From IMG/VR virus record IMGVR_UViG_3300027863_000015: a stretch of 15,696 bases of DNA. The stretch is one strand, 5' to 3'. Below are positions 1 through 15,696 of this stretch, piece by piece (positions within the stretch are counted from its first letter, which is position 1; every line of letters starts with the position of its first letter). The translations under genes were made by a program, and so were the position numbers. Under the pieces are notes generated by a model that was not told the DNA's origin, did no database searches, and was given only the letters and a program-made list of their open reading frames with translations. This stretch comes from a virus.

Positions 1-1
1 A

Positions 2-21
2 GGTGGGATATAAGTGGGATA
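2..21 (+). promoter_or_regulatory. Pair of GTGGGATA motifs inside the left repeat
   Basis: GGTGGGATA at 2-10 and AGTGGGATA at 13-21, with starts 11 bp apart. Confidence 0.5.
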
Positions 22-35
22 AAATCTCAACTTCC

Positions 36-66
36 AAATAAAAAAGGGCCAGCATCTCAGCTAACC
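36..66 (-). terminator. Rho-independent terminator downstream of the tRNA fragment, inside the repeat
   Basis: The minus-strand RNA reads GGGUUAGC-UGAGAU-GCUGGCCC, an 8-bp stem with two G:U pairs. UUUUUAUUU follows it. Confidence 0.6.
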
Positions 67-78
67 CCTTGAAATTCC

Positions 79-127
79 TGGTCGGGACGAGAGGATTTGA
101 ACCTCCGACCCCCTGAACCCCATTCAG
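79..127 (-). pseudogene. Duplicated 3' fragment of tRNA-Pro(GGG), not a complete gene
   Basis: It has the same 49 nt as 15648-15696. The sequence after 127 (tttattttatgatttc...) gives an A27:G43 mismatch, with no D-arm and no CGGGACG acceptor 5' strand. The tRNA therefore ends at the repeat boundary here. Confidence 0.8.
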
Positions 128-192
128 TTTATTTTATGATTTCAAAGGTTTTCCCCTCTTCTCCCAAATTTTCCTAAAAGCCTAAATATTGC

Positions 193-221
193 TTGACAAT
201 CAAATGGTTATTTGGAATAAT
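193..221 (+). promoter_or_regulatory. Sigma-70-like promoter for int
   Basis: TTGACA at 193-198, a 17-bp spacer, then AATAAT at 216-221. The -35 is part of the 9-mer TGCTTGACA, which recurs at two other operon starts. Confidence 0.55.
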
Positions 222-276
222 CTTACCTGAAAACAGGGTCTGATTGCAAAACTTCCCCTGAGAAATCCCGCGAAAA

Positions 277-356
277 GGTGGGACAAAAGTGGGACAGGAC
301 AGACCAACGGATTCCAAAAGGATCATTTCCCAGGTGGGACAAATGGAGGTGGGATA
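277..356 (+). promoter_or_regulatory. Array of four RGTGGGAYA motifs in the int leader, candidate arm-type Int or Xis binding sites
   Basis: GGTGGGACA 277-285, AGTGGGACA 288-296, GGTGGGACA 333-341, GGTGGGATA 348-356. All lie between the int promoter and the int start codon. Confidence 0.5.
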
Positions 357-358
357 AA

Positions 359-1857: not shown

Positions 1858-1889
1858 TCCCCTAACCCCCCGCCCCCTGGAATTTTATG

Positions 1890-2180: not shown

Positions 2181-2205
2181 ATTAACTAAATAAGGGGGTC
2201 CAAAA

Positions 2206-2728: not shown

Positions 2729-2836
2729 ATAGAGTGGTAGTTCGGAAGTTTGGAACAGGTCCCCCCTGTAATTCCAGCCCGCGCACCCTCTCCACCATAG
2801 ACCAAAATGAAGGTTTTGCATGGAGGAAATAACCTC

Positions 2837-4084
2837 ATGAGTAGAGGTGCGCCAGAGGAACGCCCTCGTTATCTTAAAGAGTTCTTAAAGTGGGCGGCAA
2901 AGTTCGATGATCTTTGCTCAGGCGATAGGCTGGTGCTATGCGCGCTCTTCGGGTATCTGGGTAAGAATGATTCTTGCTGGCCGACACAGAAAATGCTTGC
3001 CGAACACACCGGCCTTTGCACAAAACAGGTTAAAAGGATTTTGGGAAAACTTGCCAGTAAGAAAATTATCAAGTGCACGAAGAGAAACCGCGGCAAAAAC
3101 ACCAATGAATATCAATTCGTTTTTGAACAATCTGGCCAAACCAAAGGGGACATAGATGTCCCTTTCAAAGGGGACGCGGATGTCCCCTCTAAAGGGACAC
3201 AGGTGTCCCCTGCAAAGGGGACATCCAGGGTCAGTAAAACCCCGGAGATGCAGGCCAGCCGTAGGCCAGCGGGTGCGGAATATATCAAGAATAGATCAAA
3301 GAATAAGTCAGTCAATCAGTCAGGGACGGACGGACTGACAGACGAAAAAACTTCAGATAAAAAACCAGCATCGGAAGAAGTTGTTTCCCTGTCCTGGGAT
3401 GATTCTAATTCATCTCTGGGAGAAGAAGTTAATGATGTTTTCGCCCCGCGGCCTGGCGCGCCGCCGCGCCTCGCCCCTGAACAGATTAACGCCCTTTTCG
3501 GCGGGCCGGGTCCCCGGCCTGTAAATCTTCTGAACTGTCCTGTAGGGGATTTTGCCCTTCGTGATCTTACTTCCCCTTTTAAGAAAGGGCCGGGAGTCAT
3601 AGAAATCCTTGGCTTCGATCCTGACACCCCACAGGCTCAATGGTTTGAAGACGCGCTAAAGGAATTTTACAGAGAAGTTATCAACCGGCATTGGAACCCA
3701 AACGCAGATCATCCGCCCGGCGCGCCGTTCCGCCGCCTTTTCTACCGGGCCGGGCGATCCGGCCTGCTTTATGAGTTCGGTTTCCGGCCCCTCAGCCCTG
3801 AGCAACAGGAAGCGCAACAGCGCGAAGCAGAGCGCCAGGAAGAAGAAGCGGCTGAAGCCGCCCGGCTTAGGGAAGAAGAACGCCGCCGACTGGCCGAAAA
3901 AGAAGCCGAGTACAAGGCGTTCATCAAACGGCGCGTTGTCCAAAATTATCTATCGTGCATGGGAATCCCGCCAAGGGACTATAAGAACCATCTCCGCGAG
4001 ATTGCGGCCCGGCTCAATGGACGGGCTACGCTTAACGCGGTTGAACAGTTCATGCGGGCGAAGCTGCAAAATGAGGGTCACTAA
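2837..4084 (+). CDS. Replication initiator-like protein with N-terminal winged-helix/HTH and C-terminal Glu/Arg-rich coiled coil
   Basis: The N-terminus DRLVLCALFGYLGKNDSCWPTQKMLAEHTGLCTKQVKRILGKLASKKII matches the CWPS-type HTH of plasmid and phage Rep proteins (HTH_36-like, from memory). The gene contains an iteron array. ATG 2837 has GGAGG 10 nt upstream, and ATG 2807 is the alternative start. Confidence 0.6.
   Translation: MSRGAPEERPRYLKEFLKWAAKFDDLCSGDRLVLCALFGYLGKNDSCWPTQKMLAEHTGLCTKQVKRILGKLASKKIIKCTKRNRGKNTNEYQFVFEQSGQTKGDIDVPFKGDADVPSKGTQVSPAKGTSRVSKTPEMQASRRPAGAEYIKNRSKNKSVNQSGTDGLTDEKTSDKKPASEEVVSLSWDDSNSSLGEEVNDVFAPRPGAPPRLAPEQINALFGGPGPRPVNLLNCPVGDFALRDLTSPFKKGPGVIEILGFDPDTPQAQWFEDALKEFYREVINRHWNPNADHPPGAPFRRLFYRAGRSGLLYEFGFRPLSPEQQEAQQREAERQEEEAAEAARLREEERRRLAEKEAEYKAFIKRRVVQNYLSCMGIPPRDYKNHLREIAARLNGRATLNAVEQFMRAKLQNEGH
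3143..3233. repeat. Iteron array, candidate origin of replication inside the rep gene
   Basis: Units of about 24 bp start at 3143, 3167, 3191 and 3214, each AAAGGGGAC-N6-GTCCCC. Three are full dyads and the fourth is a half site. An AT-rich stretch follows at about 3280-3370. Confidence 0.6.
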
Positions 4085-4159: not shown

Positions 4160-4807
4160 ATGCCAGTTTTCACATTCTGGAGTGCGGCGGCGATCCGAGC
4201 CTATCTCCTGGCCCGCGTGGAACCGGGGCCGGGCGGTTGTTGGCTGTGGACCCTGAGCTTAGACCGCCGGGGATATGGGTTGTGTCGCGGGATTAGCCGC
4301 AGTGAGCGGCGGGCGGCAAGGCTGAGCTATAGGGCTTTTGTGGGGCCGATCCCACCAGGCCATGACATTCACCATCTTTGTCAGAATCGTAATTGCATCA
4401 ATCCCGCCCACCTTGAGCCTATGGCCCATGGCGTTCATCTGCGGTTGCACGCCGCCACGGGTGCATGGGCGGGAGAGAAGAACTCCCAGGCGAAGCTAAC
4501 GGAAGAGGAAGCCAGGTTCATCAAGGTGGCGGGGCCGCATGTTTCGGCCCAAGCCCTGGCGGATCGTTTTGGCGTCTCCCTGAGCACGGTTTACTATGCC
4601 CGGCGGCATGGCTGGAATCATGTGGATTTGCCGGACTTCCCGCCCCGGCCCTTGGCTGAGGTCTTGCAGGCCGGGCGGGAGGCGAGTCAAAAGGCCCTGG
4701 CCGCCCTTCAGGGAGTGCAACGGGACCGGCGGGAGCGGGGAGAACCACAGCCGCCGCACATTGAGGAATATATCACCTTGGCCAGGGCGTGCGCCGGTCT
4801 TTCGTGA
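4160..4807 (+). CDS. HNH endonuclease (HNH_3-like) with C-terminal HTH
   Basis: CWLWTLSLDRRGYG...GHDIHHLCQNRNCINPAHLEPMAHGVH is the classic HNH_3 signature. The downstream SAQALADRFGVSLSTVYYARRHG is HTH-like. I prefer ATG 4160 because GGAGG at 4146-4150 lies 9 nt upstream. Confidence 0.8.
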   Translation: MPVFTFWSAAAIRAYLLARVEPGPGGCWLWTLSLDRRGYGLCRGISRSERRAARLSYRAFVGPIPPGHDIHHLCQNRNCINPAHLEPMAHGVHLRLHAATGAWAGEKNSQAKLTEEEARFIKVAGPHVSAQALADRFGVSLSTVYYARRHGWNHVDLPDFPPRPLAEVLQAGREASQKALAALQGVQRDRRERGEPQPPHIEEYITLARACAGLS

Positions 4808-5158
4808 ACATGCGGCGGGGAGGGAGGATAAACTGGGTCATAGCTGCGCACGTGGCGGGAGGGAAGAAGCCCCTGAGAACTCTACCTGACTGGCATAACT
4901 CAAGGAGAGGCCATGGAACCCTTAATGACCTGGAAACCCACGCCGCAAGCCGATGAACGGGGCCGAAGGCCACTGGCCGTGAACATATCATTAAGGGATA
5001 ATCGGCCCGAATAGAGGTGCCGACTTTTGGCCAGGGAAAAGGTCTTCTTTTCAATAGGTTATCATGCTATGCAACTGACACCTAATCAGGTGGTCTTTAT
5101 ACATAACTTCTTGTAAAAGCAAGTGGTTAATATGAGCCATAAGAAGAACTGTCAGAAT

Positions 5159-5178
5159 ATTCCCACCATTGTCCCACT
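5159..5178 (-). promoter_or_regulatory. Inverted pair of GTGGGA motifs just upstream of the late promoter -35
   Basis: The reverse complement reads AGTGGGACA-AT-GGTGGGAAT. The 11-bp phasing matches the att-arm pairs, and the pair ends 7 bp before TTGACA at 5185. Confidence 0.45.
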
Positions 5179-5181
5179 TTT

Positions 5182-5214
5182 TGCTTGACAGGATGTACAA
5201 CCATAGTGTAACTT
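5182..5214 (+). promoter_or_regulatory. Candidate promoter of the packaging/head operon
   Basis: TGCTTGACA at 5182-5190 gives a perfect -35. The -10 is poor (TAACTT at 5209-5214), which fits an activator-dependent promoter. Confidence 0.35.
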
Positions 5215-5391
5215 CGGGAACCATAACATCGGGAGTGCGGCAAGCTCAACAGGGACCCCACGCCTTTTTTCAGGGGCCTCTGTCATGACTCCGATAAGGG
5301 CGGCTCACGCCACGCCCGAAATCCCCAAACGATAAACAGCGTTTTCGTTTAACGCGTTGCAGACCATTCGCAACGGGGGTTGAGGTGCATT

Positions 5392-5751
5392 GTGAGCCGT
5401 ACCAAGTGGGACAAGCGCGATCCCGATTACTGTGACCTTGAGGGCAAGCCGATCTATGACCGGCGGGCCAGGGTCCATATCTGGACGGCCAAACTCAAGG
5501 CCGAATTCTTCTCCGCCCGCAAGCCTACCCACGCACAACGCCTGCAAATCGCCGCGGCGGTATGTCTGATTCTTGACCTATCCGCCGCCCATGAGGGCTT
5601 CAACTCCGGCAAGCCCCTACCGAAGGACTATCTCCCCAAGCTCAACGCCCTGAGAGCTATCCTGGCCGGATTCCGCCCCAAGGCCCCGAAGGGCAAGGCC
5701 GTCCCTAAAGACTCCCCAAGCCTGGCCGCGATCCTTGGGGGTGAAGCATGA
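5392..5751 (+). CDS. terS: Putative small terminase subunit, called by position only
   Basis: It lies immediately upstream of TerL and overlaps it (ATGA at 5748-5751). The frame contains no ATG. GTG 5392 has GAGGT 5 nt upstream, and the track start is TTG 5380. Confidence 0.4.
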   Translation: MSRTKWDKRDPDYCDLEGKPIYDRRARVHIWTAKLKAEFFSARKPTHAQRLQIAAAVCLILDLSAAHEGFNSGKPLPKDYLPKLNALRAILAGFRPKAPKGKAVPKDSPSLAAILGGEA

Positions 5752-7520
5752 TCCGCCAGCTTCTTCACCCTCTGTTAGCGCCTGAACCTGAGTCCGGGGC
5801 TTCCCGCCCGTTTCAACCCGGCAACCCTGGCGGGCCTGGCCGCGGCAACCGGCGGGATCGGGACGGCGAGATTCTGGACAGGTGGAACGCTCCCGGCCCC
5901 TGTGGGTTTTGGGCCTGGGTTGCAGACGTGCGCCCCCACGTCTTGCAGCGCAATAACCAATACGGGCCATGGGAACCGACTGAAGAACAGCGCCGGGCCA
6001 TTGACAACGCTTTGGCCGTTGACGCCCATGGCCGCTTCCTGCATACCCTGAACCTGCTTATCGAACCGCGCCGCCATGGGAAGAGCACGGCCTTTGCCCT
6101 GGTGGTCTTGTGGCTTTCGACTTCCCGCCGCAATCACGTTTGCCAGCTTTTGGGAAACACGGCGGACCATTCCCGGCGCACTCAGTTCAGAACCTTGCGG
6201 CGGATCATCGCCAATACCCCGCGCCTGGCCCGGCTGATCCCAGACGAGTTTATTTTCACCAATGAAATCACCTTCCCGCCCCTGCAATCGGCCATTCAAC
6301 TTGGGGAGGGGTTGAGCCTGTCAAGCGCCTTCGGGGACCGGCTTAATTGTCTGTGGGTTTCCGATCTTCACGCCTCCCCCGATCTTGGCCCCTTCAACGC
6401 TTTGCAGGCCAGCTTGTTAGACAGTGAAGACTCTCTGATCCTGATTGACAGTAACGTTGACCCCACGGACGGCCACGTTCACGGCCTGCAAAAGGAAGCG
6501 GCAAGCGACCCAACAATCTACGCCCGCCATGTCTGTTATAGGGACCTGGCCGAATTTGAAACAAAGGCTCCGGCCTGGATTGACCGGCAAAAGGCCCGGC
6601 GGCTGCAACGGACGGCCCTACCCGCCGACTTCAAGCGGGATATTCTTGGCCAAAGGTCAGACGCCAAGAACGCCCTTTTCCCTACAGAGTTTATCAAGGC
6701 GGCCCGCGCTCCGTACAAGATTCCCGTGGCCGATCTGAAAGAGCTTGTCAAAGGCCGGGCTTACAAGGTGGGCGGCGGGCTGGACCGGGCCAAGTCTTTA
6801 TCACCCCTGGCGGGCGGGGATTCGACCGTCTGGACGGTTGTGGCCAAGGTTGCTTCCCCTGAGCATGGCGAGCCGGAATTTTATGTTCTTAACCAGGTGG
6901 TCTTCACCCTCAACACCTCACGGGCCATTAAGAAGGCGATCCTGCAAGATCATGAAAGGTACGGCCTGGACGCTGTGACCCTGGAAAATTACGAGATTAC
7001 GGACCTGGCCCCATGGCTGGCGGACGTGAAGATTCCCCATGAAATCGTGACCGCCTCAGAAAAAATGCAGAATTCGGCCTTCCCAGAAATGGCCCGGATT
7101 TTCAGAGAAGAGCGGTTTCACTTTTCCAAGGACCTGAAGACCTTCGAATCTGAACTCAAGGCTTTCGTGTACCAGGCGGGCCGGGCGGGGAAGTATTCCT
7201 TCGGAGCCGCCACGTCTAAACAGCATGACGATACGGTTTACTCAACCTGTCATGCAATTTGGGCCTTGCGGGAAGCGGTCCTGGCCGCCTATGTCCTGGG
7301 GTCCTTCACTTGCCGGAATAAGTCCCCGCGCCGTCAACTCTGTTACCTCATGGGCGGCGGGAAGCAGCTTCTTTGCGCCGATTTCTGCCAGGCCCACAAG
7401 CAGGTGGAAGCCATGTTTCAAGAGTTCAAGAAGATCAGGTTAGACGATGATCTGAACTTGCATGAGTTTTTCGAGAGCAAGGTACGCTTTGACGGGGCCA
7501 GGATTTACCAGGCCGCATAA
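5748..7520 (+). CDS. terL: Terminase large subunit
   Basis: It has a Walker A-like EPRRHGKSTAF, a Walker B-like LILIDSNVD and a C-terminal nuclease-type HDDTVYS. Size and position before the portal gene fit. Confidence 0.8.
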   Translation: MIRQLLHPLLAPEPESGASRPFQPGNPGGPGRGNRRDRDGEILDRWNAPGPCGFWAWVADVRPHVLQRNNQYGPWEPTEEQRRAIDNALAVDAHGRFLHTLNLLIEPRRHGKSTAFALVVLWLSTSRRNHVCQLLGNTADHSRRTQFRTLRRIIANTPRLARLIPDEFIFTNEITFPPLQSAIQLGEGLSLSSAFGDRLNCLWVSDLHASPDLGPFNALQASLLDSEDSLILIDSNVDPTDGHVHGLQKEAASDPTIYARHVCYRDLAEFETKAPAWIDRQKARRLQRTALPADFKRDILGQRSDAKNALFPTEFIKAARAPYKIPVADLKELVKGRAYKVGGGLDRAKSLSPLAGGDSTVWTVVAKVASPEHGEPEFYVLNQVVFTLNTSRAIKKAILQDHERYGLDAVTLENYEITDLAPWLADVKIPHEIVTASEKMQNSAFPEMARIFREERFHFSKDLKTFESELKAFVYQAGRAGKYSFGAATSKQHDDTVYSTCHAIWALREAVLAAYVLGSFTCRNKSPRRQLCYLMGGGKQLLCADFCQAHKQVEAMFQEFKKIRLDDDLNLHEFFESKVRFDGARIYQAA

Positions 7521-7531
7521 GGGAAAAGAAC

Positions 7532-8851
7532 ATGCTTTTTCAAAGCCAAGTCCCGATTATTTTCAACCGCCTGAACCTTCAGGCCGACAGCGCCGCTTCT
7601 TTGGCGCGCAAGACAGAGACGGCCAAGCGGCTTGACCTGTACCATGACGCTCAGCTTGACCACCTGGAAACCAGGCTGAATGAGCTTTTCTCCGATCCTT
7701 CCGCCATGGTCAAGGTCTGCCTGAACGTGGTTAAGAAGGTGGTCAACAACCTGGCCCAAGTTTACCGGGAAGCCCCGGTTCGGATTATAGAGGGAAACGA
7801 CAGCGATAAGGAGCTTTACTCCGGGATTGTCGAGGGCCTGGCCCTGGACGTGAAGCTGAAGCTGGCCAGCCGGTACGCCAAGCTCTTAAAGACCATTCTC
7901 CTTCGCCCGGTTTGGCGAAATGAACGCCTGGACCTGGACATATTGACCGGGAACATCCTGGACGTGGAAACCGGGGAAAGCCCGGAAATCTTGTCAAAGG
8001 TCCTGGTTACGGATTTCGGCACGTCTGACAAGATTGAAGAGGTGGAATACTCCTACTGGACGCCGGAAACCTGGCAACGCCTGGACTACCGGGGCCAGGT
8101 GAAAGAAGAAGCAGCGAATCCTTACGGCGTCCTACCCTTCCTTGCAGTTTTCGATTATCCGCCGCCCTCTTCAAGCTTTTGGCTTCCGGGCGGAGACGAT
8201 CTTGTCAGCCTTCAGGAAGCCGTAAACCTGAAGCTGACTGATCTTCTCTATCTCCTGTCAACCCAGTCCTTCGGCGTGGGGTATATCAAGGGCGGTCAAG
8301 GCGGCGGGAGCCTCAAGGTTGATCCCGGCGCCCTGGTGGAACTCCCGGAAAACGGAGAAATCGGCTTTGCCAATCAACAGGCCCGGATTGAAGAAGTGGT
8401 GGGAGCCATTGACAAGCTAATCAAGTGGGGCTGTGTGAGCCATGGCCTTTCCGCCGCTTCCATGTCAACCGATCCCCAGGAAGCAAGCGGGTTAAGCAAA
8501 ATTGTGGATACCCGCGAACTGGCGGAAATGCGAGCTGAAGACGTGGCCCTGTGGCGTTCCTATGAAAAGCGGCTTTTTCAGCTTGTGCGCGTGGTTTGGA
8601 ACGCCCACAACACAAAGAAGCTTTCCGAGTCGGCCACACTCAAGGTTGACTTCGCCGATCCCCGCCCCGAAGTTGACCCCAAATCACAGGCCGAAGCCTG
8701 GGAGAAGCTCTTGGGGTTTGGCGTTATCTCCCCTGTAGATATTGCCATGCAACAAAACCCGGACCTGAAGACGCGGGAAGAAGCCCTGGCGTATCTCATT
8801 CAAGTGCAGGAAGAAAGCCGGGAACTGAACTCCGGTAGAGAAGTTTTATAA
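7532..8851 (+). CDS. Portal protein
   Basis: A 439-aa ORF directly after TerL and before the scaffold and capsid genes. The call rests on position and size. I did not recognise a specific motif. Confidence 0.65.
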   Translation: MLFQSQVPIIFNRLNLQADSAASLARKTETAKRLDLYHDAQLDHLETRLNELFSDPSAMVKVCLNVVKKVVNNLAQVYREAPVRIIEGNDSDKELYSGIVEGLALDVKLKLASRYAKLLKTILLRPVWRNERLDLDILTGNILDVETGESPEILSKVLVTDFGTSDKIEEVEYSYWTPETWQRLDYRGQVKEEAANPYGVLPFLAVFDYPPPSSSFWLPGGDDLVSLQEAVNLKLTDLLYLLSTQSFGVGYIKGGQGGGSLKVDPGALVELPENGEIGFANQQARIEEVVGAIDKLIKWGCVSHGLSAASMSTDPQEASGLSKIVDTRELAEMRAEDVALWRSYEKRLFQLVRVVWNAHNTKKLSESATLKVDFADPRPEVDPKSQAEAWEKLLGFGVISPVDIAMQQNPDLKTREEALAYLIQVQEESRELNSGREVL

Positions 8852-8895: not shown

Positions 8896-9291
8896 ATGCC
8901 TGACAAAGCCAATGACCAAAATACGCAGGATCAGCCCGGCGGGAACGCACCCGATAAAGGCGACGGTAAAGACCGGGCGGATCAAAACCAGGAAAAGACT
9001 GTCCCCTATACCCGCTTTCAACAGGTAAATGAGGCCAAGAAGCAGGCGGAAACCGAGCTTCAGGCCGTGGCGGACGGTCTTAAGGAAGAAGTCCCTGAAG
9101 AATTCCGGGAGTTAATCCCGGACTTGCCGCCCGGCCAGCTTATCAAGTGGCTTCGGCAAGCCCAGGCCAAGGGAATTTTCAACCCGCCCAAGGCCGACGC
9201 CCTGGATTCCAAACGGCCCGGCGATAAGAAAGCGCCGGACTTTAACGCCATGACCCCTCTTCAAATGCGTGAGGCGGGGTACAAGACCTAA
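8896..9291 (+). CDS. Scaffolding protein
   Basis: 131 aa with a charged, low-complexity N-terminus. The VPYTRFQQVNEAKKQAE helix resembles scaffold proteins I recall. It lies between portal and capsid, with GGAGG as its RBS. Confidence 0.55.
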   Translation: MPDKANDQNTQDQPGGNAPDKGDGKDRADQNQEKTVPYTRFQQVNEAKKQAETELQAVADGLKEEVPEEFRELIPDLPPGQLIKWLRQAQAKGIFNPPKADALDSKRPGDKKAPDFNAMTPLQMREAGYKT

Positions 9292-9303: not shown

Positions 9304-10224
9304 ATGTCTCTGACTCTTTTGGAAGCTGCGAAACTTTCTCAGACCCCGTTGCAGCGCGGGGTGATTGAAGTCTTCCCGCGGACTTCCCCGATCTTGGAAC
9401 GGTTGCCCTTCCTGGACGTGGCGTCCGACTCCTATAAGTACAATCAGGAAGAGGCCCTTCCGGGAATCGCCTTCCGGGGAATAGGCGAAGGCTACACCGA
9501 ATCTACCGGGGTGATTAACCCCGTAACCGAAGCCCTGGCCATTATGGGCGGCGTCTCCGATGTTGACCGCGCCCTGGTGAAGACTCAGGGGAATATCAAC
9601 AACCTTCGGGCTATTCATGACGGCCTGAAGGCCAAGGCCGCGGCTCTGTTCTTCACCAAGAACTTTATAAAGGGCGACACGGATGAAGACCCCAAGGGCT
9701 TTGACGGCCTGGAAAAGCGGTTGACCGGCGGCCAGGTGATTGACGCCGGGGCCACTTCCGGGGGAGACGCCTTGACCCTGGCCAAGCTTGATGAACTCAT
9801 TGACGCGTTGGCGGGCGGCCCGGACGTTCTTTTCATGAACAAGACCATGCGCCGGAAAGTCAACACCCTGATTCGGGCGGCTAACCAGGCCATTGAAACC
9901 GTTTCGGACGCCTTTGGCCGCCTGCTTACCGCTTACGCTGGGGTTCCTATCGCGGTTATCGAAAGCGATGAACAGGATAACCCGATCCTGGCCTTCGATG
10001 AAGCGGCCCCTGGCGGCGGGTCTTCCGTCTGTACCAGCATTTACGCCGTCCGCTTCGGCGCGAAGGAGTATGTCTCCGGCCTGCAATGCGGCAAAATGGA
10101 CGTGATTGACATGGGCCTGTACTCCGGCGGGACGGCCTACCGGACGCTGATTGAGTGGATTTGCGGCCTGGCCGTCTTTCATCCCCGCGCCGCCGCCCGT
10201 CTCCGCGGGATCAAGAACGCTTAG
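9304..10224 (+). CDS. Major capsid protein
   Basis: 306 aa. The N-terminus LLEAAKLSQTPLQRGVIEVF...LPFLDV...YKYNQEEALPGIAFRGIGEGY resembles a capsid family seen in small phages (from memory). It follows the scaffold gene and has a GAGGTG RBS. Confidence 0.7.
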   Translation: MSLTLLEAAKLSQTPLQRGVIEVFPRTSPILERLPFLDVASDSYKYNQEEALPGIAFRGIGEGYTESTGVINPVTEALAIMGGVSDVDRALVKTQGNINNLRAIHDGLKAKAAALFFTKNFIKGDTDEDPKGFDGLEKRLTGGQVIDAGATSGGDALTLAKLDELIDALAGGPDVLFMNKTMRRKVNTLIRAANQAIETVSDAFGRLLTAYAGVPIAVIESDEQDNPILAFDEAAPGGGSSVCTSIYAVRFGAKEYVSGLQCGKMDVIDMGLYSGGTAYRTLIEWICGLAVFHPRAAARLRGIKNA

Positions 10225-10242
10225 GCGGAAGGAAGGTGAACC

Positions 10243-10737
10243 ATGTTTGATGTAGCCCATGAACTGAAAGACGCGGGCCTGGTGGCTTCCAGTCTGGCCG
10301 GAACGGTTGACGGTCAGGCCAAGGTGGTCAACCTGGGGCGTGAACTGGTGGAAGGGAAGCTGGTTATTGACGTGTCGGCCCTGGAAATTGACTCCGATAA
10401 CGAGCTTTACCGGATCAAGCTGCAAGGGTCCGCCGCCCATGACTTCAGCGCCTATGTGGAAGACCTGGCCATTTTGGAGCTTGGGGCCAAGGAAGTCCTT
10501 GGCGGGGATCAGGATTCCCAGGCGGGCCGGTATGTGGTGCCTTTCACCAATGGCAAGGGCCTTTACGTCTGGCCTTACGTCCGCCTCTACACTGAGGTTT
10601 CCGGGTCTGTGGCCACAGGGATTGATTTTTCCGCCCACCTTGTGCGGGAAGTCACCACGCGGCCTTTGACCGGCTTAACGACTACCACCACCACAAGCAC
10701 AACTACCACCACTTCAACCACAACCACCACTACCTAA
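10243..10737 (+). CDS. Capsid-adjacent protein (possible decoration or head accessory) with a poly-Thr/Ser C-terminal tail
   Basis: 164 aa with an AAGGAAGGTG RBS. It ends in TTTTTTSTTTTTSTTTTTT. The functional call is by position only. Confidence 0.45.
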   Translation: MFDVAHELKDAGLVASSLAGTVDGQAKVVNLGRELVEGKLVIDVSALEIDSDNELYRIKLQGSAAHDFSAYVEDLAILELGAKEVLGGDQDSQAGRYVVPFTNGKGLYVWPYVRLYTEVSGSVATGIDFSAHLVREVTTRPLTGLTTTTTTSTTTTTSTTTTTT

Positions 10738-10975: not shown

Positions 10976-12118
10976 ATGGAAAACTACTTTAACGAGCGCT
11001 ATAAGTTCACCCATAGGCTTGAGGGCGTGGTCAACGCCTACGGGGTTGATATTGCTCAGACCTTGGCCGGGGCCTTAGAAACCGTTACCGGCAAGCTCAT
11101 GAGGTTGACCGCGGCGGCGGAATCAACCCCTTCCCTGGTAAGGAAGCGGGAGTTTCTCCTTAAGCGGAAGGCCGAAATTGAAACCGCCCTGGCCGAAATC
11201 TACCGGGATATAGGGGAAGACCTGAAGGCCAGGGCCGTTGAGACGGCCATGGTCACGCCCGAAATCATCAATGGGATCATGGAGGGGAGCCTTCCCGAAG
11301 GCGTGTCAGCCGGGTTGAAGTGGTCACACGTCACTAAGGATCGGGTCTTGGCCTGGTGGGATTCGGCCCAGGTTGAAGGAACTTTCTTTGCCGACTACCT
11401 GAAGAAATTGGAAACATCCGCCGCCCAAAGGATTCTTCAGGCGTCGCGGGAAAGCCTGATTCTCGGAGACAACTTCAAAGTTACCGCCAAGAAGCTTCAA
11501 GACGCCCTGGATATTGGCAGACATTCGGCTATGGGGTTAGCCAAAACTGCGATCCATAGCGCGGTGAATTGGGCCGAGCGGGAAGTTTATGAACAAAACT
11601 CGGATCGGTTCAAGAGTTACCGCTTCCAGGCCGAGCTTGACCGGGGGACCTGTGAATATTGCGCCTTCCTGGACAGCCGGGAATATGCCCTTGAAGACGC
11701 TCCCATGCCGCCCGTGCATTTCGCTTGCCGATGCTGGGTATTCCCGGTCTTGAAGGACGTGATAGTTGACGGGAAAACCGTTCCCTTTGAAGACGCCTTG
11801 GGGCCGGAATATGACAAGGTGGCCCGGCGGATTTCCCGCCTTGAGACTGATCCGCGGACGGTGCATCACCGGGACGGGACAACTTCCACGGCCTACCGGG
11901 GCTATGAGGTCAAGTTTGTGGACCGGAGAATGAACTACCGGCAATGGATGGAGTCCATGGTTAAGAGTTCAGACCCCGGAGACGTGGCCTTTGCCAGGGA
12001 AGCCCTTGGCCCTACCCGATTTAACCTGGTGGAATCCGGCAAGCTGAAAATTGAGTCCCTGTACTACGGCGGTAAGGTGCGAACCATCAATGAACTGAAG
12101 AGGTTAATGGAATCATGA
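10976..12118 (+). CDS. Head morphogenesis / minor capsid protein, Mu F / SPP1 gp7 family
   Basis: AELDRGTCEYCAFLDSREY...PPVHFACRCWVFPV matches the D-x-R-T-C-x-x-C...H-x-x-C-R-C signature of this family. No Shine-Dalgarno sequence is visible upstream. Confidence 0.75.
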   Translation: MENYFNERYKFTHRLEGVVNAYGVDIAQTLAGALETVTGKLMRLTAAAESTPSLVRKREFLLKRKAEIETALAEIYRDIGEDLKARAVETAMVTPEIINGIMEGSLPEGVSAGLKWSHVTKDRVLAWWDSAQVEGTFFADYLKKLETSAAQRILQASRESLILGDNFKVTAKKLQDALDIGRHSAMGLAKTAIHSAVNWAEREVYEQNSDRFKSYRFQAELDRGTCEYCAFLDSREYALEDAPMPPVHFACRCWVFPVLKDVIVDGKTVPFEDALGPEYDKVARRISRLETDPRTVHHRDGTTSTAYRGYEVKFVDRRMNYRQWMESMVKSSDPGDVAFAREALGPTRFNLVESGKLKIESLYYGGKVRTINELKRLMES

Positions 12119-12561
12119 CCGACCTGATTGCTTACCCGGACGCGGGATATAACACCTGGATAGATGAAGACGGGGCGGCGGAGCACTTTGCAAACCGTCT
12201 TCATACCGATGATTGGTTAGCGGCGGACGCGCCAACCCAGGCCGCAGCCCTGCTTATGGCCTTCCGGTCCCTGAATGAGCTTGAGTTCAATCTGTGGTGG
12301 AAGCTTGATAAGACCCTGGCGGATCGTTATACGGACGCCCAAAAAGCCGAAATCCTGGCCACCCTGAAGCAGGCTCAGTGTGAAGAGGCGCTTCATTTGC
12401 TCCGGTATGATACTGAGGGCGTCGGCGTTCAAGCCGTGAGCCTGGGAGGGATGCTTTCAGTCAGGCTTGACCCTGGCCAGAATCCGCCCCGCCACAGTCA
12501 AAGGGCTATTGATATTTTGCGGTCACTCCTCAAGGGCCGGTCTGTGGCCCGGTTCAGGTAA
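12115..12561 (+). CDS. Head-tail adaptor/connector-like protein (gp6 / DnaT-like pattern)
   Basis: YPDAGYNTWIDEDGAAEHFANRL...DWLAADAPTQAAALLMAFRSL resembles the N-terminal pattern of head-tail connector proteins. Its ATG overlaps the preceding stop (ATGA). Confidence 0.5.
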   Translation: MTDLIAYPDAGYNTWIDEDGAAEHFANRLHTDDWLAADAPTQAAALLMAFRSLNELEFNLWWKLDKTLADRYTDAQKAEILATLKQAQCEEALHLLRYDTEGVGVQAVSLGGMLSVRLDPGQNPPRHSQRAIDILRSLLKGRSVARFR

Positions 12562-12565
12562 GAAG

Positions 12566-13345
12566 ATGAAAGGCGTCTGTGAAAAATGCGCCCGCCGGGA
12601 AGGGTGCGATACCCCTTGCAGGCCGGTTGAACTCTACCTTGCCCAGGACAACTTGACCGTTTTCGAGAAGACGGGAATAGGCGAAAATGGGGAGGAAATC
12701 ACCATCATTTTCGCCCGCTCCCGCGAAATCCCGGAATCCATGCTACCCCAAATTTCGGATAAGACTGAAGAACCCATAGACGTTTTCACCACGGAAGCGG
12801 ACTCCCCTTTTGCCGGATTCAACCCTGACCTGAAGCAGACCGGCGTCTTCATAGACCGCTTCTTCAACAAGTGGTCTTATGAAGACCTGGCGGTCAAGTA
12901 CGAGACGACCGTTGAAGGAGCCAAAAAGCTCTATCATGCCGCCGTCAAGCGTCTCCTGAACGTGGTAGAGGCCCTGGACGGGAAGAACGGCCCACGCAAC
13001 TTCGAACCCTGGAAAAAGATGGTGGAAGAGCGCTCAGGGAGTATCCCGGCGGGAATGAGGTGGTTCCTGCTTAACAAGCTCTTCCAAATGCGGCCCGCCG
13101 AAATCGCCCGCATGGAAGGCGTCAAGCACCCTTCCGAAGTCCGGGGCCTGATTATCCGGGTAAGCGATCAATTAAGCTGTGGGGAGATTTCCATTTTCGA
13201 GAAGGACCCGGAACAGGCGGAAGCGGCCAAGGCACGCCTTGAGGTTAAGAGAAAACAGCGCCGGGAGAGACACGCCAAGAACAAAGATTCTATAAATGCT
13301 AAACGGCGTGAGTCATACGGCCGGAAGAAATCCAAAGAAGGCTGA
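12566..13345 (+). CDS. Cys-cluster plus sigma-70 region-4-like HTH DNA-binding protein with a highly basic C-terminus
   Basis: N-terminal CEKCARREGCDTPC (C-x2-C-x5-C-x3-C). FIDRFFNKWSYEDLAVKYETTVEGAKKLYHAAVKRLL resembles sigma region 4.2. A second HTH-like segment is RPAEIARMEGVKHPSEVRGLIIRV. I prefer ATG 12566 because the track start at 12467 overlaps the previous gene by 95 nt. Confidence 0.55.
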   Translation: MKGVCEKCARREGCDTPCRPVELYLAQDNLTVFEKTGIGENGEEITIIFARSREIPESMLPQISDKTEEPIDVFTTEADSPFAGFNPDLKQTGVFIDRFFNKWSYEDLAVKYETTVEGAKKLYHAAVKRLLNVVEALDGKNGPRNFEPWKKMVEERSGSIPAGMRWFLLNKLFQMRPAEIARMEGVKHPSEVRGLIIRVSDQLSCGEISIFEKDPEQAEAAKARLEVKRKQRRERHAKNKDSINAKRRESYGRKKSKEG

Positions 13346-13456
13346 TCCACACGCAATCTATGTTTTTCAAGAGTGACTTCCCATAACCCTTTATTTCTCC
13401 CTTAAAACTTGCTATGCTGGCTTTCCGAATAATCTCTGGGGCAAAGGGGAAATTCC

Positions 13457-14101
13457 ATGAAAAAATTACTGCCAATTTCTATTATTATGATGTTTTGGTT
13501 TGCCGGGATAGCGAATGCCCAATCAGCTAAAGAGGCTATAGAGGCTCTGAAAAAACTTGAGTCAAGGGTACAGGTGGGCATTTCTTATAAAGACTATGGA
13601 CCAGCTTTGGGAGAAACACATTATAAAGTAAAAAACTATTTAGATAGTCCTGAGTCAAAAAAGAATTCTAAGTTAAGAAATTCAATTGAGAAGGCGTTAA
13701 ACCATTATATTTATGCAAATGATATATGGAAATATAAATTCGCTGGCAAAGTTTCTGATATAATATATAGAGAAGAACCGCCTTTACCACACCAATATCA
13801 ATACAGCCCTAATAGTGCTACTAATGATTTAATAAGGAAAGGTGACGAACGAAGGAAGGAGGCTGCAAAGAGATTTGTTGATCAGATTATGAAAGACTAT
13901 CGTAAAGTTAAATTAACCTCTTATGGCGGAGGTGGAACATTTATATCAATTTCAGATGCCTTATCGGTTATTTGGAATGAAGCGTCTGATGAAATAAAAA
14001 TAGCATCTAAGTTACTAACTTCTGATGAAATTAAGACTGAAGATACAGAATCAGAAGATGAATCAACCCCACGCCCTTCAAAGTTAAAGACAAAAAGATA
14101 A
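13457..14101 (+). CDS. Secreted/periplasmic protein of unknown function (214 aa)
   Basis: Sec-type signal peptide MKKLLPISIIMMFWFAGIANA|QS. RBS AAAGGGGA lies 6 nt upstream. The gene is very AT-rich, unlike the element core. Confidence 0.65.
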   Translation: MKKLLPISIIMMFWFAGIANAQSAKEAIEALKKLESRVQVGISYKDYGPALGETHYKVKNYLDSPESKKNSKLRNSIEKALNHYIYANDIWKYKFAGKVSDIIYREEPPLPHQYQYSPNSATNDLIRKGDERRKEAAKRFVDQIMKDYRKVKLTSYGGGGTFISISDALSVIWNEASDEIKIASKLLTSDEIKTEDTESEDESTPRPSKLKTKR

Positions 14102-14200
14102 TATCAAGATTTATGAGCAAAGCTAACTAAGCCTAATAAATCTTAACAATAGCCGAAGAGATTGTATGTGTACCAATACCAAATGGGAGGAATTATTTTT

Positions 14201-14407
14201 ATGCCTTATTATGTATATCAAATTCATACTGATAGCACGAATAACCGCCTGTATAATTCTTTTGATAATTTACGAGACGCCGAAAAATTAGAAAAACAGA
14301 TGTTGGAAGGGCGGCGTATCGGAGATAATTATTTTGTCGCAATTGTTAAGGCAGAAAACGATCAAGAGGCGAAAATTAAGGCTGATAGCTTGCGTCCGCA
14401 TCCATAG
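14201..14407 (+). CDS. Small hypothetical protein (68 aa)
   Basis: I prefer ATG 14201 because GGGAGG at 14185-14190 lies 10 nt upstream. The track start is TTG 14162. No motif recognised. Confidence 0.45.
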   Translation: MPYYVYQIHTDSTNNRLYNSFDNLRDAEKLEKQMLEGRRIGDNYFVAIVKAENDQEAKIKADSLRPHP

Positions 14408-14411
14408 CTTT

Positions 14412-15329
14412 TTAAACATGAGAATAAATAGTTCTTGACGATATTACTTCTTTTATTGCCCGGTCAAGATTCATTTTATTAATGGCAAGACTATAAAATT
14501 CCGGGTCTCCTTTGTAATAATTCATAGAACGATAAAATACTGAGGCTCCGCCTTTGATCTTACCCGTAGTAAATTCATCTCTATTAATTTTTTCCCACCT
14601 CATAAAGGGTTGACGCTTGCCATAAATATCTATTACTTCTGCAAAATAACTTCCAAGGCGATCCAATTCATTGTTAGGGTCTTGCCATAGTAAAATACTT
14701 TCCATAGAATAACCCATCGATAGTTGTTTTAATGCTTCTTCCCTGAGTCTCTCAGATGCTTCTCTTAATGAAACAAAGGCATCATCGTCTGTGGGGCGGG
14801 TGTCTGTGAAAGCTAATAACTCATTAATTGCTACGGTCAAGTTGAAACTGGCGGATTGGTCAACGGGTTGCCTCGTATTCTCTGATTGCAAAAACTGAAG
14901 CAAGGCGGGTTTTAGAGCGCTCCGGCATTCTCGATACTTCTGTGTCGCGGCATCAAAATCACTGAGTCGATCCGGATCAATAAAAGGCCGAAGCTCAAAA
15001 ATTGCAGTGTCGTGCTGAACCTTATGGTGAGTTATCAGATAATGCGGGTCTATACTGCCACCGGTAATTTGAGTCATGGCTTCGGCAAAGGCTGAACGAA
15101 ACTTAGCGGCGGCTTCGCGTTTTGCCTTCTGAAGAAAATCAGGTTGCCCCTCTTGCGTTATGTTGACGTCACGGCCAGCCTGTATATTCTGGGAACTAAT
15201 GCCGCCACTTTGTTGCTGAACATGACTCGGTTTTTTTAGCATCCACCCCACTATGGCTACTATTATAGCGACACCAGCGCCGCTAAAGAGCCATGTCTTA
15301 TTATCTATGACCCAATTGAGCGTGTCCAT
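14412..15329 (-). CDS. Membrane-anchored protein of unknown function (305 aa)
   Basis: One N-terminal TM helix (WLFSGAGVAIIVAIVGWML), then a Gln/Ser-rich linker (QQQSGGISSQNIQAGRDVNITQ) and a domain of about 240 aa with no motif I recognise. It is the only minus-strand gene, and its stop lies 4 bp from the stop of the 68-aa ORF. Confidence 0.65.
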   Translation of the reverse strand: MDTLNWVIDNKTWLFSGAGVAIIVAIVGWMLKKPSHVQQQSGGISSQNIQAGRDVNITQEGQPDFLQKAKREAAAKFRSAFAEAMTQITGGSIDPHYLITHHKVQHDTAIFELRPFIDPDRLSDFDAATQKYRECRSALKPALLQFLQSENTRQPVDQSASFNLTVAINELLAFTDTRPTDDDAFVSLREASERLREEALKQLSMGYSMESILLWQDPNNELDRLGSYFAEVIDIYGKRQPFMRWEKINRDEFTTGKIKGGASVFYRSMNYYKGDPEFYSLAINKMNLDRAIKEVISSRTIYSHV

Positions 15330-15497
15330 TCCTCTTCATCCCTTAAGCGCGCTGCTTTTTGGCGCATCCCCTGTAAGGCGTTGGGCTTTCCGTTCTTCCT
15401 AATTGTGACAAAGTACCACGAATTGTCCAGTTTTACAAATCAACCTCGAAAACCAGTTAAGGGTGAAAAAATATTTCTCACAGATTTTTTCCTCAGC

Positions 15498-15590
15498 CCC
15501 ACTTATGGAAAATTCTTAGCGGATCAGAGGCCTATGGACCCTGGTGGGACAAAAGGTGGAATAGTTTGAAGGTGGGATATAAGTGGGATA
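15498..15590 (+). promoter_or_regulatory. Right-arm cluster of GTGGGAYA-type motifs
   Basis: GGTGGGACA 15543-15551, GGTGGAATA 15555-15563, GGTGGGATA 15571-15579, AGTGGGATA 15582-15590. There is also an inverted degenerate copy, CCCACTTAT, at 15498-15506. Confidence 0.5.
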
Positions 15591-15604
15591 AAATCTCAAC
15601 TTCC

Positions 15605-15635
15605 AAATAAAAAAGGGCCAGCATCTCAGCTAACC
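15605..15635 (-). terminator. Rho-independent terminator of tRNA-Pro (right repeat copy)
   Basis: Same sequence as 36-66, shifted by 15569. Confidence 0.6.
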
Positions 15636-15647
15636 CCTTGAAATTCC

Positions 15648-15696
15648 TGGTCGGGACGAGAGGATTTGAACCTCCGACCCCCTGAACCCCATTCAG
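15648..15696 (-). tRNA. tRNA-Pro(GGG), 3' portion (about nt 28-76). The 5' part would lie beyond the window end.
   Basis: The reverse complement reads CTGAATGGGGTTCAGGGGGTCGGAGGTTCAAATCCTCTCGTCCCGACCA. It has an anticodon loop A-U-GGG-G-U with G37, a 5-nt variable loop, a T-arm GGAGG/TTCAAAT/CCTCT, acceptor CGTCCCG, discriminator A and encoded CCA. It closely resembles E. coli tRNA-Pro as I recall it (GGGTCGGAGGTTCGAATCCTCT...ACCA). Confidence 0.8.

Follow-up and report, generated by a model that had tools for sequence, protein, structure and literature searches.

A 15,569-bp capsid-encoding integrative element, probably a helper-dependent phage satellite, from a Desulfobacca acetoxidans-like host

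We consider it probable, at roughly 0.7, that the DNA analysed here (the window, a stretch of 15,696 nucleotides) represents an integrative phage satellite of 15,569 bp, captured after excision as a circle (attP), and that this satellite resides in a Desulfobacca acetoxidans-like host of the Thermodesulfobacteriota and draws its tails and lysis functions from a helper phage.

Circular form, integration site and host

The two ends of the window, 1-127 and 15570-15696, form a perfect 127-nt direct repeat, and with this overlap counted once the unit measures 15,569 bp. An identical 15,569-bp sequence was found in the JGI contig Ga0123519_10008455, where it is circularly permuted, overlaps itself by 123 nt at another place and carries the 127-mer just once at the corresponding junction. 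This permuted second assembly, together with the absence of the repeat as such from an integrated copy, identifies the window as a circular contig with an assembler overlap. The preliminary description had taken the terminal repeats for attL and attR; this is rejected, since window positions 1-59 are confined to the right end of the integrated copy, the overlap lies elsewhere in the second assembly and the att homology of the integrated copy has a different extent, 68 nt. Circular-looking contigs could alternatively stem from tandem copies or replicating concatemers.

The attL/attR homology of the integrated copy shows 95.6% identity over its length and contains an exact core of 50 nt, which comparison of attL, attR and attB places at window positions 78-127 (also 15647-15696; minus strand) and which equals the 3' portion of tRNA-Pro(GGG), anticodon stem through CCA. 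The terminal repeat thereby holds the 3' part of a minus-strand tRNA; ARAGORN found no whole tRNA in the window, and the complete tRNA-Pro(GGG) was seen solely in the integrated copy, which lies on a 186-kb contig at that gene, with the tRNA intact and an EF-G/MOSC flank. A search for empty attB sites in related strains, proposed earlier, returned one, a precisely empty site on a 181-kb contig from the same organism, with flank identities of 100% and 99.7%, so that empty, occupied and circular states are all present in metagenomes. The integrated copy and the empty site bear out the earlier proposal of tRNA-Pro(GGG) as the integration site. A terminator-like hairpin (43-70, minus strand) lies 3' of the tRNA end, where homology to attB is imperfect; as the element brings both a replacement tRNA 3' end and a terminator, the tRNA gene remains complete once the element has integrated. 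The flanking proteins are exact UniRef entries of D. acetoxidans and, judged from sequence, the host is a relative of this sulfate-reducing bacterium of the Thermodesulfobacteriota.

The element is genuinely integrative, and its tyrosine integrase inserts it into the 3' end of tRNA-Pro(GGG) via the 50-nt core. The integrase gene (359-1576; this and all further genes and signals lie on the plus strand unless stated otherwise) encodes 405 aa (PF00589, 1e-32; phrog_1, 6e-65; gene call from JGI/ENA) and is preceded by a sigma-70-like promoter candidate at 193-221 (TTGACA-17-AATAAT, 11/12 consensus matches). Paired GTGGGAYA motifs, candidate arm-type sites for Int or an RDF, occur in the P arm with 11-nt spacing (15544-15589: 15544/15555 and 15572/15583, the latter equal to window 3/14) and in the P' arm, downstream of the int promoter and ahead of the start codon of int (278-356: 278/289 and 334/349). 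This layout is kept in a relative (L091) whose Int is 79% identical. The integrase gene is followed at 1573-1857 by a predicted 94-aa lipoprotein (o94; lipobox LFGC), which is conserved in a second relative (L008) and has no assigned function.

Replication, packaging, head and cargo genes

A promoter-like site at 2140-2169 stands upstream of three genes for regulation and replication. These encode a 108-aa protein (o108; 2206-2532) without significant family match; a 73-aa AlpA/excisionase-like HTH protein (2507-2728), which matches HTH_17 weakly (4e-4; 20.9 bits against a Pfam cutoff of 27) as well as phrog_66, annotated "excisionase and transcriptional regulator" (8e-5, also weak); and a replication initiator with a lambda-O/DnaD-like N-terminal wHTH (2807-4084; HTH_36, 1e-10; phrog_270, 3e-12; O-like PHROGs). 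Within the initiator gene, at 3146-3223, lie origin iterons, comprising three copies of GGGGACA-N4-TGTCCCC, against 0.12 expected, and a half site, with an A+T-richer stretch after them.

An own head and packaging module in a small integrative element, as first described, was supported by HMM searches, which matched int, the AlpA-like HTH, Rep with its origin, HNH, TerL, portal, major capsid protein (MCP), Mu-F and a probable Ad1 adaptor, whereas the proposed TerS and scaffold found no profile match. The module opens with an HNH endonuclease with a C-terminal HTH (4160-4807; HNH_3, 6e-9; phrog_826, 1e-26), whose gene is kept upstream of terS-terL in five relatives (L008, L091, L117, L118 and L152). 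The following non-coding stretch (4808-5391), partly conserved in L091 and L008, contains a candidate late promoter (TTGACA at 5186) and an inverted GTGGGA pair (5160-5177), and a packaging (cos or pac) site likely lies within it. The putative TerS (119 aa; 5392-5751) is so named by position and its gene overlaps the start of terL; it has no match in Pfam, PHROGs or NCBIfam, and it is kept in L008, L091, L010 and L011 with dN/dS of 0.3-0.4. TerL (5748-7520; phrog_2, 2e-11) is highly divergent, with zero tblastn matches among 50,697 phage records and zero PDB sequence matches. An SPP1 gp6-like portal (7532-8851; PF05133, SPP1_portal, 8e-7) is followed by the putative scaffold (131 aa; 8896-9291), which is conserved across relatives and whose gene, as in phage Tripp, has that of the portal before it and that of the MCP after it. 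The MCP (9304-10224) has the HK97 fold of the epsilon15 gp7/BPP-1 type (phrog_212, 3e-84; PF20911, 5e-21; PDB 3j40, 1.4e-5, and 3j4u). In many loci, large tailed phages included, the MCP gene is directly followed by that of a 164-aa protein with a poly-Thr C-terminus and no family match (o164; 10243-10737), a candidate decoration or cement protein that would travel with this MCP family. The Mu-F/SPP1 gp7-like minor head (head morphogenesis) protein (10976-12118; PF04233, 3e-11; phrog_241, 8e-39) precedes the probable head-tail adaptor Ad1 (12115-12561; phrog_477, 1e-4, weak), 11 of 25 homologues of which match PF20557 (DnaT_2; best 1e-6); hhalign weakly aligns Ad1 with Tripp gp9 and its structure model was unusable (pLDDT 52). 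No prohead protease family was matched by any ORF in Pfam, PHROGs or NCBIfam, scaffold and Mu-F standing in its stead.

No second head-tail connector gene was detected after Ad1. The ORF at 12566-13345, taken earlier for the last structural gene, instead encodes a 4-Cys Zn-ribbon, sigma-70-region-4-like (sigma4-like) DNA-binding protein, without a tblastn match among the 50,697 phage records. It is conserved and specific to this element family, and it closes the head operon in every informative locus that has it, followed by variable cargo and then by a tRNA or host genes. In the window, the low-G+C (35-44%) cargo region (13457-15329) comprises a secreted 214-aa protein (o214; 13457-14101), a small ORF (14201-14407) and a membrane-anchored 305-aa protein on the minus strand (o305; 14412-15329), o214 and o305 being without assignment. 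At the same position, relatives carry other content, including a D12 MTase with a DndB-like protein, a CoiA-like nuclease, AbiJ and NTP_transf_2, which suggests that this 3' region is exchangeable cargo, in relatives often defence-like.

Searches of all ORFs with four HMM libraries (Pfam, PHROGs, NCBIfam and PADLOC) gave no match to tail, holin or endolysin families, which upholds the earlier claim that tail and lysis genes are absent within the limits set by att and the circle; the mark of a complete temperate tailed phage, namely tail (tube, tape measure, baseplate or fibre) and lysis genes inside those limits, was not found. The possibility raised at the outset of tail genes immediately beyond the window was also examined and none were found, as the circular form, the integrated form and the empty attB fix the borders of the element exactly. 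An element with its own head and packaging genes but without tail or lysis genes most likely borrows its tails from a helper phage, and we infer from gene content that it would depend on one.

Such a satellite would be excised by Int and the AlpA-like protein, as RDF or activator, acting at the paired GTGGGAYA arm sites, and the O-like initiator would fire the iteron origin inside its own gene. The HNH-TerS-TerL set would load unit-length DNA into a small capsid, probably T=4, built from the element's portal, scaffold, epsilon15-type MCP, decoration-like protein and Mu-F, and an Ad1-type adaptor would close the portal vertex. The sigma4-like Zn-ribbon protein may be a DNA-binding regulator of late or helper transcription, and tails and lysis would come from a co-resident helper phage.

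Relatives and rival explanations

Six relatives bounded by att repeats, 12.5-16.4 kb in length, occupy six other tRNA sites: Pro-GGG (L008, 15,724 bp), Ala-GGC (L091, 15,708 bp), Lys-CTT (L010, 15,077 bp), Arg-ACG (L013, 16,351 bp), Ala-CGC (L012, 12,489 bp) and Arg-CCG (L015, 13,499 bp). Between the att sites of the close relatives examined, no tail or holin genes were found, and in IMG/VR the contigs whose MCP is at least 60% identical reach a maximum of about 12-16 kb, the sole 27-kb contig consisting of two units. The head operons of the att-bounded relatives end in the same way as in the window; the continuation of the head operon into tail genes, named beforehand as the sign of a deletion remnant, was never seen in the relatives that have Mu-F, Ad1 and the sigma4-like gene in common with the element, its closest ones, where variable cargo and then a tRNA or att follow. 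Capsid genes more distantly related to that of the element lie in tailed phages or beside a tape-measure gene (L032, L110, L103 and phage Tripp). In L110 the tape-measure gene lies directly 3' of Mu-F (PhageMin_Tail, 3e-19), as it does in L103, at an MCP identity of 70%, so the boundary between satellite and phage in this capsid family is not clean.

There is some ground for viewing the element as a formerly complete temperate phage whose tail and lysis modules were deleted and which is decaying. Its capsid family also occurs in Tripp, PK2 and L032 (the last with a 1,178-aa tape measure), all complete tailed phages, and decayed copies exist within the element family, one without int, rep and terS (L172) and two disrupted by IS (L173 and L016). 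The window copy, however, has intact ORFs throughout, a precise circle is excised and an empty site exists in the population, elements of like size and tail-less layout are found at seven tRNA sites across different hosts, the sigma4-like gene is always last in the operon and purifying selection is evident in every head and packaging gene between tail-less elements (dN/dS 0.12-0.36), and we regard decay as very unlikely. A further reading is a GTA-like, domesticated or otherwise host-serving capsid cluster that packages host DNA and not itself. With a size class of about 13-16 kb for the packaged DNA, the element is reminiscent of small-headed GTAs; the Desulfovibrio GTA Dd1, a poorly characterised agent, packages 13.6 kb. 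Relatives of the element, moreover, occur in Desulfovibrionaceae. Such a cluster would not be expected to possess its own integrase, att site, origin and initiator, to sit in different tRNA sites from genome to genome, to be absent from an otherwise identical chromosome, to appear as a unit-length circle or to be devoid of the tail genes that GTAs carry. These properties mark a selfish mobile element rather than a fixed GTA cluster, and a GTA is the most improbable of the readings weighed.

Whether the element could instead be an autonomous minimal virus, forming its own particles through unrecognised tail, attachment and lysis proteins or spreading as a tail-less capsid, turns on its unassigned ORFs. 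The lipoprotein o94, o108, the poly-Thr protein o164, the secreted o214 and the membrane-anchored o305 are candidates, the approximately 1,300 residues in ORFs without assigned function make an unconventional attachment or lysis device possible, and the solved MCP relatives are podoviruses with compact tails. The unassigned 3' ORFs, however, are not conserved among relatives and so cannot be core virion parts, and the conserved unknowns are the sigma4-like DNA-binding protein and the 164-aa MCP companion of large tailed phages. No holin-like or endolysin domain was found, and even phi29-class tails require about 2,000 residues. Autonomy thus seems to us quite unlikely, and the satellite reading is preferred.

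Comparison with known satellites and phages

Capsid-forming satellites were reported in 2022-23 from Enterobacteria, Pasteurellaceae and Firmicutes, all with HK97-type, protease-dependent heads and with a reported three origins (10.1101/2022.09.08.507074, PMC10085698). These cf-PICIs set the precedent for the lifestyle (10.1101/2022.09.08.507074, PMC10085698); their prototype, EcCIEDL933, measures 15.4 kb (Alqurainy et al., 10.1101/2022.09.08.507074) and the median of known cfPICIs, the group for which SatelliteFinder has a model, is 14 kb (PMC10085698). The element resembles them in being integrative and about 15 kb long, with int, a putative AlpA-like regulator and replication genes co-oriented and followed by HNH, putative TerS, TerL, portal, capsid and a probable adaptor, in lacking tail and holin genes and in carrying accessory genes at its end; its HNH-TerS-TerL-first operon order is that of the Lactococcus/Enterococcus group (10.1101/2022.09.08.507074). 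An integrase with site-specific integration, an own portal and MCP, the absence of tail and holin genes and a size of 15,569 bp are thus shared with cf-PICIs, whereas their primase-replicase module and prohead protease are lacking. In place of pri-rep there is an O/DnaD-like HTH_36 initiator with internal iterons, a functional analogue, although one relative (L171) carries Prim-Pol/PriCT_1, and in place of the protease there are scaffold and Mu-F. The cf-PICI capsid protein is of the HK97 Phage_capsid family, whereas the MCP of the element falls into a different Pfam family, PF20911 (epsilon15 gp7 type). The element further differs in the lack of a detected head-tail connector or attachment gene, in its extra conserved Zn-ribbon/sigma4-like gene and in its host phylum, Thermodesulfobacteriota; none of 5,426 E. 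coli genomes showed DNA similarity. The initial impression of a non-enterobacterial, possibly new lineage is supported.

The capsid-forming satellite lifestyle is thus already known, from enterobacteria and Firmicutes, and is found here with an unrelated head gene set, which suggests that it arose again from a lineage with an epsilon15-type capsid, scaffold and Mu-F. Sulfate-reducing and syntrophic Thermodesulfobacteriota, whose phage biology is almost unexplored, serve as hosts, and marker-based tools would probably miss such elements because protease and connector markers are absent. With its three att states, swappable defence-like cargo and family-specific sigma4-like gene, the element offers a test case for the way in which satellites acquire tails from a helper and for the resetting of head size with a shared MCP, from about 55 kb to about 15 kb. 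A bolder proposal, which we put forward tentatively and think rather unlikely, is that the family is an independent, protease-less origin of capsid-forming satellites in anaerobic Thermodesulfobacteriota, in which the sigma4-like protein would be a hijacking factor that binds RNA polymerase or helper late promoters and induces tail and lysis genes; P4 delta switches on P2 helper genes by a different fold.

Classical Gram-negative PICIs of the EcCICFT073 type share the int-alpA-rep order in one orientation, the absence of a CI/Cro-type repressor and site-specific integration, but have no TerL, portal or capsid and use helper capsids (PMC10085698). Tailed phages with the same capsid family (Paenibacillus phage Tripp, 54 kb; Bacillus phage PK2, 59 kb; phiCbK-like Caulobacter phages), with MCP identities of up to 56%, have TerL, portal, a Mu-F-type protein, scaffold and MCP in common with the element, and epsilon15 and BPP-1 are linked to its MCP by PDB sequence match. 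The genomes of the former are, however, 3-14 times larger, and in Tripp the MCP gene is followed by four small connector genes, tail tube, tape measure, Dit and others. P4 and the SaPIs, with genomes of 11.6-15 kb that fit a small T=4 head, as that of the element probably does, are likewise integrative and depend on helpers, as the element would; in contrast to these satellites, which remodel capsid proteins encoded by the helper, it encodes its own.

Circular, integrated, and empty forms of the element

The first and last 127 nt of the window are identical, and the preliminary description took these terminal repeats to be att flanks; they are instead the assembly overlap of a circular contig. 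A JGI contig, Ga0123519_10008455 (15,692 nt), has the window sequence in circularly permuted form, and when its own 123-nt end overlap is subtracted, it yields a 15,569-bp circle that differs from the unit of the window by one base and contains the 127-mer once, at the junction. A 186-kb ENA contig carries the integrated element, identical to the window outside attL, with a complete tRNA-Pro(GGG) gene to its right, followed by the EF-G, MOSC, and MoCF genes. The homology between attL and attR extends over 68 nt (95.6% identity) and includes 50 nt that match exactly, a core formed by the 3' part of the tRNA (window positions 78-127), and window bases 1-59 are found at only the right end of the integrated copy; thus, the 127-nt repeat is not an att duplication, and the permuted circle and the attL/attR comparison together rule out its assignment as attL and attR. 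We infer that the contig was broken where attP and attR diverge, both forms being present in the sample, and that the overlap length reflects the assembler k-mer, for which 127 is a common maximum. ARAGORN detected no tRNA in the window; only the integrated locus and the empty locus contain the complete gene.

A search for the empty site, with the bacterial arm of attL as the query, identified a 181-kb JGI contig that runs from the left flank (100% identity) through an intact tRNA gene to the right flank (99.7%), a precisely empty attB of the kind that the preliminary description had proposed looking for. The circular, integrated, and empty states of a site-specific element are all documented, and nothing beyond 15,569 bp belongs to it; these limits exclude tail genes lying just outside the window, an arrangement also considered in that description. 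For the EF-G and MOSC proteins of the flank, UniRef has exact entries, assigned to Desulfobacca acetoxidans (Thermodesulfobacteriota). In another sample, positions 1-640 of JGI contig Ga0272446_1041417 (locus L169) begin with this left chromosomal flank and the tRNA-Pro core and then pass into unrelated sequence, in which a MerR/excisionase-like helix-turn-helix (HTH) protein is encoded; there, this attB appears to be used by a different mobile element.

Pairs of the repeat GTGGGAYA, 11 nt apart, occur on both arms of the core, at 15544/15555, 3/14, 278/289, and 334/349, and the composite paired motif is present five times against an expectation of 0.21. Locus L091 (IMGVR_UViG_3300032069_000479), whose integrase and major capsid protein (MCP) are 79% and 93% identical to those of the window, is a 15,708-bp element in tRNA-Ala(GGC) with att repeats at 72-119 and 15780-15827; it has the pairs at the same relative positions, and the motif is absent from elements with more divergent integrases. 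In L091, core specificity has switched recently while the arms are conserved. An inverted GTGGGA pair also lies between HNH and terS, at 5160-5177, with a TTGACA 9 nt farther downstream, and a role for the motif as a late-promoter operator was considered and rejected, since this pair is not kept in L091, whereas the att-proximal pairs are; for this reason, we read the GTGGGAYA pairs as candidate arm-type sites for the integrase or its directionality factor. A hairpin and T-run that lie downstream of the tRNA after integration are carried by the element itself (43-70, minus strand), so that the tRNA gene remains complete.

Gene content of the window

All credible genes are on the plus strand, with the exception of one cargo gene. 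The tyrosine integrase gene (359-1576; PF00589, 1e-32, in the Pfam and PHROGs searches) is accompanied by genes for a 94-aa lipoprotein, a 108-aa protein without functional assignment, a small AlpA/excisionase-like HTH protein with weak matches (HTH_17, 4e-4; phrog_66, 8e-5), and a lambda-O/DnaD-like initiator (2807-4084; HTH_36, 1e-10). Within the initiator gene, at 3146-3223, are iterons consisting of three palindromes, GGGGACA-N4-TGTCCCC, and a half site; three copies of the motif occur in the window against 0.12 expected. The remaining genes encode an HNH endonuclease (HNH_3), a putative TerS assigned by position (a 119-aa open reading frame [ORF] overlapping the start of terL), a divergent TerL (phrog_2, 2e-11), an SPP1-type portal (8e-7), a putative scaffold likewise placed by position (131 aa), the MCP (phrog_212, 3e-84; PF20911), a 164-aa protein whose gene travels with the MCP gene at many loci, a Mu-F minor head protein (phrog_241, 8e-39), a probable Ad1 head-tail adaptor (phrog_477, 1e-4), and a 259-aa protein (12566-13345). 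The MCP matches in sequence two podovirus capsid proteins of solved structure, from epsilon15 and BPP-1. TerL has no match in cultured phages or among PDB sequences. Outside the putative TerS and scaffold, the Pfam and PHROGs matches uphold the head and packaging genes named in the preliminary description, and the set looks complete. Two absences reported there were confirmed: in searches of Pfam, PHROGs, NCBIfam, and PADLOC, the ORFs of the window gave no match to tail, holin, or endolysin families, and no CI/Cro-type repressor was found in the window.

The adaptor candidate has no match among PDB sequences, and its AlphaFold model (pLDDT, 52) gave meaningless Foldseek matches in the PDB. In hhalign comparisons of its family with gp9 and gp10 of phage Tripp, the best alignment covered only 37 columns at 7% probability, and no alignment was obtained between the 164-aa protein and Tripp gp9. 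The Pfam DnaT_2 family matches 11 of 25 close homologues of the candidate; no paper pairing "DnaT-like" with "head-tail" was found in the literature. The C terminus of the 164-aa protein (10684-10737) is a run of approximately 18 Thr/Ser residues (TTTTTSTTTTTSTTTTTT), and the tblastn matches of this protein to L091 and to locus L008 end before it.

The gene at 12566-13345 had been described as the last structural gene, an assignment that did not survive analysis of its product. Approximately 156 homologues were found among 5.8 billion proteins, with no match in cultured phages; the protein has four nearly invariant N-terminal Cys residues, two HTH-like regions, and a basic C-terminal helix, and some homologues match Sigma70_r4/r4_2 or are labeled sigma-24 by JGI. 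A PDB profile search gave no significant match. Modeled with AlphaFold at moderate quality (pLDDT, 67; pTM, 0.30), the protein superposes best, among PDB entries, on sigma region 4, but only locally and with nonsignificant E values, as with SigD4 (3vep; root mean square deviation of 0.9 Å over 47 columns; target TM score, 0.65); matches in BFVD are of the same flavor, and neither PDB nor BFVD provided a global match. Together, the sigma-region-4-like features of sequence and model point to a DNA-binding rather than a structural protein, and our guess is that it acts in late or helper transcription.

The cargo block (13400-15400) has a G+C content of 35 to 44%, against 55 to 60% elsewhere, which suggests recent acquisition. 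Its three ORFs received no family assignment from Pfam, PHROGs, PADLOC, or NCBIfam; the sole PADLOC/NCBIfam match is a weak one of the N terminus of the 305-aa product to the PADLOC candidate PDC-M43A (3e-5). The 214-aa product also occurs in L008 (88%), which has a second, 28%-identical paralogue.

Absence of tail genes: deletion or lifestyle

The capsid gene alone says nothing about lifestyle, since its family is common to genuine tailed phages. It comprises more than 3,181 proteins at an E value of <1e-5, and its cultured members, with up to 56% identity, are from 50- to 60-kb siphoviruses and phiCbK-like phages; in Tripp, four small connector genes come after the capsid gene, and then tail tube, tape measure, and Dit genes. 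An alphaproteobacterial relative, L032 (MCP identity, 53%), encodes a 1,178-aa tape measure, and its 16.6-kb "att-bounded" unit was not counted as a satellite because this genuine tape measure lies inside it. Even at 70 to 71% MCP identity, some relatives, among them partial contigs L110 and L103, pass straight from Mu-F to a tape-measure-like gene (L110, 6278-9451, PhageMin_Tail, 3e-19; L103, 4277-7102; L104, 7250-10075), an unusual arrangement with no adaptor, tube, or chaperone genes between the two. Annotations of the same capsid family, at 36 to 44% identity, occur in 953 plasmid records (matches H26 to H33 in the plasmid collection), mostly from Klebsiella, Escherichia, and Acinetobacter, which presumably are phage-plasmids.

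The subfamily of the element has TerL, portal, Mu-F, Ad1, and the 259-aa gene in common, and the last of these ends the operon in every informative locus; beyond it come cargo that varies between loci and, finally, a tRNA or host genes: a CoiA-like nuclease and tRNA-Pro in L008, a D12 methyltransferase with a DndB-like protein and tRNA-Lys in L010, ORFs without assignment and tRNA-Arg in L011, one small ORF and tRNA-Met in L017/L018, five ORFs without assignment and tRNA-Ala in L091, NTP_transf_2 and host genes in L171, and AbiJ and tRNA-Ala in L172, a copy without int, rep, and terS. Relatives delimited by att sites measure 15,724, 15,708, 15,077, 16,351, 12,489, and 13,499 bp and occupy six different tRNA genes, and IMG/VR contigs with at least 60% MCP identity cluster at 12 to 16 kb, the sole larger one (27 kb) consisting of two units. 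In every informative locus of the subfamily that carries the 259-aa gene, the head operon stops without tail genes after it. Terminal repeats were found in no IMG/VR relative contig; the contigs are apparently excerpted from proviruses, and L091 contains both attL and attR. Size-based tape-measure candidates in L106, L149, L098, L131, and L118 proved to be a primase-polymerase, serine recombinases, and a host CheB-CheR-PAS protein.

Decayed copies do exist in the family (L172, L173, and L016), but these show remnant features and the window is not like them. The dN/dS values of 0.12 to 0.36 between tail-less copies for TerS, TerL, portal, scaffold, MCP, the 164-aa protein, Mu-F, Ad1, and the 259-aa gene indicate purifying selection and hence that the head genes are being maintained; the window is very unlikely to be a deletion remnant.

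Among the individual relatives, L172 (GCA_040961035.1, JBFOMV010000568.1) is a truncated member that starts at terL, immediately preceded by host genes (glycosyltransferase and OMP), with its AbiJ/Abi_C cargo gene adjoining tRNA-Ala(GGC). The relative in a cultured isolate, Desulfosarcina widdelii PP31 (L016/L127; NZ_AP021875.1, ~1.338 to 1.359 Mb; MCP identity, 70%), has a TPR gene and a DDE transposase gene inserted between terL and portal and a weak Phage_attach match, absent from the window, after the adaptor-like gene. L106 and L115 lie on one contig (IMGVR_UViG_3300035547_000130; 27,380 nt) with two capsid genes 16,060 nt apart, and in these units, as in L149, the head genes are followed by genes for a serine recombinase, a ParA-like protein, and an 840-aa primase-polymerase; no tail genes were detected, and a possible reading is that of a plasmid-like or tandem element of ~16 kb that encodes a capsid. 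The same capsid family is present in Desulfovibrionaceae elements of 12.5 to 13.5 kb (L012, L014, L015, and L061). The Desulfovibrio desulfuricans gene transfer agent Dd1 packages 13.6-kb DNA and is, according to the literature, poorly characterized genetically; a link between it and these elements is pure speculation.

Proposed mechanism and relation to capsid-forming PICIs

The element integrates into and excises from tRNA-Pro(GGG), with a circular form, and belongs to a conserved family with exchangeable cargo. We suggest that it would be activated by the AlpA-type protein and replicated from the iterons, that its DNA would be cut by the terminase, assisted by HNH, at a site within 4.8 to 5.4 kb, and that it would be packaged into a small capsid of its own; a length of 15.6 kb fits a T=4 head of the kind known from P4 and SaPI. 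Tails of a helper phage would then join through the Ad1 adaptor, and lysis would be helper mediated. With TerS and scaffold putative and Ad1 weakly matched, we put the probability of this helper-dependent, capsid-forming-satellite mechanism as a whole at about 0.7.

The capsid-forming PICIs are the functional match of the element. In contrast to them, it has no prohead protease or primase-replicase, no second connector was found, and its capsid protein belongs to a different Pfam family; it also has no DNA similarity to E. coli genomes. These features do not support membership in the capsid-forming PICI family under its current definition. The literature on these satellites that we examined reports none from the Thermodesulfobacteriota. 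Three independent origins of capsid-forming PICIs have already been inferred by the authors who described them (10.1101/2022.09.08.507074; PMC10085698), and the family of elements described here looks like a further independent origin of capsid-forming satellites.
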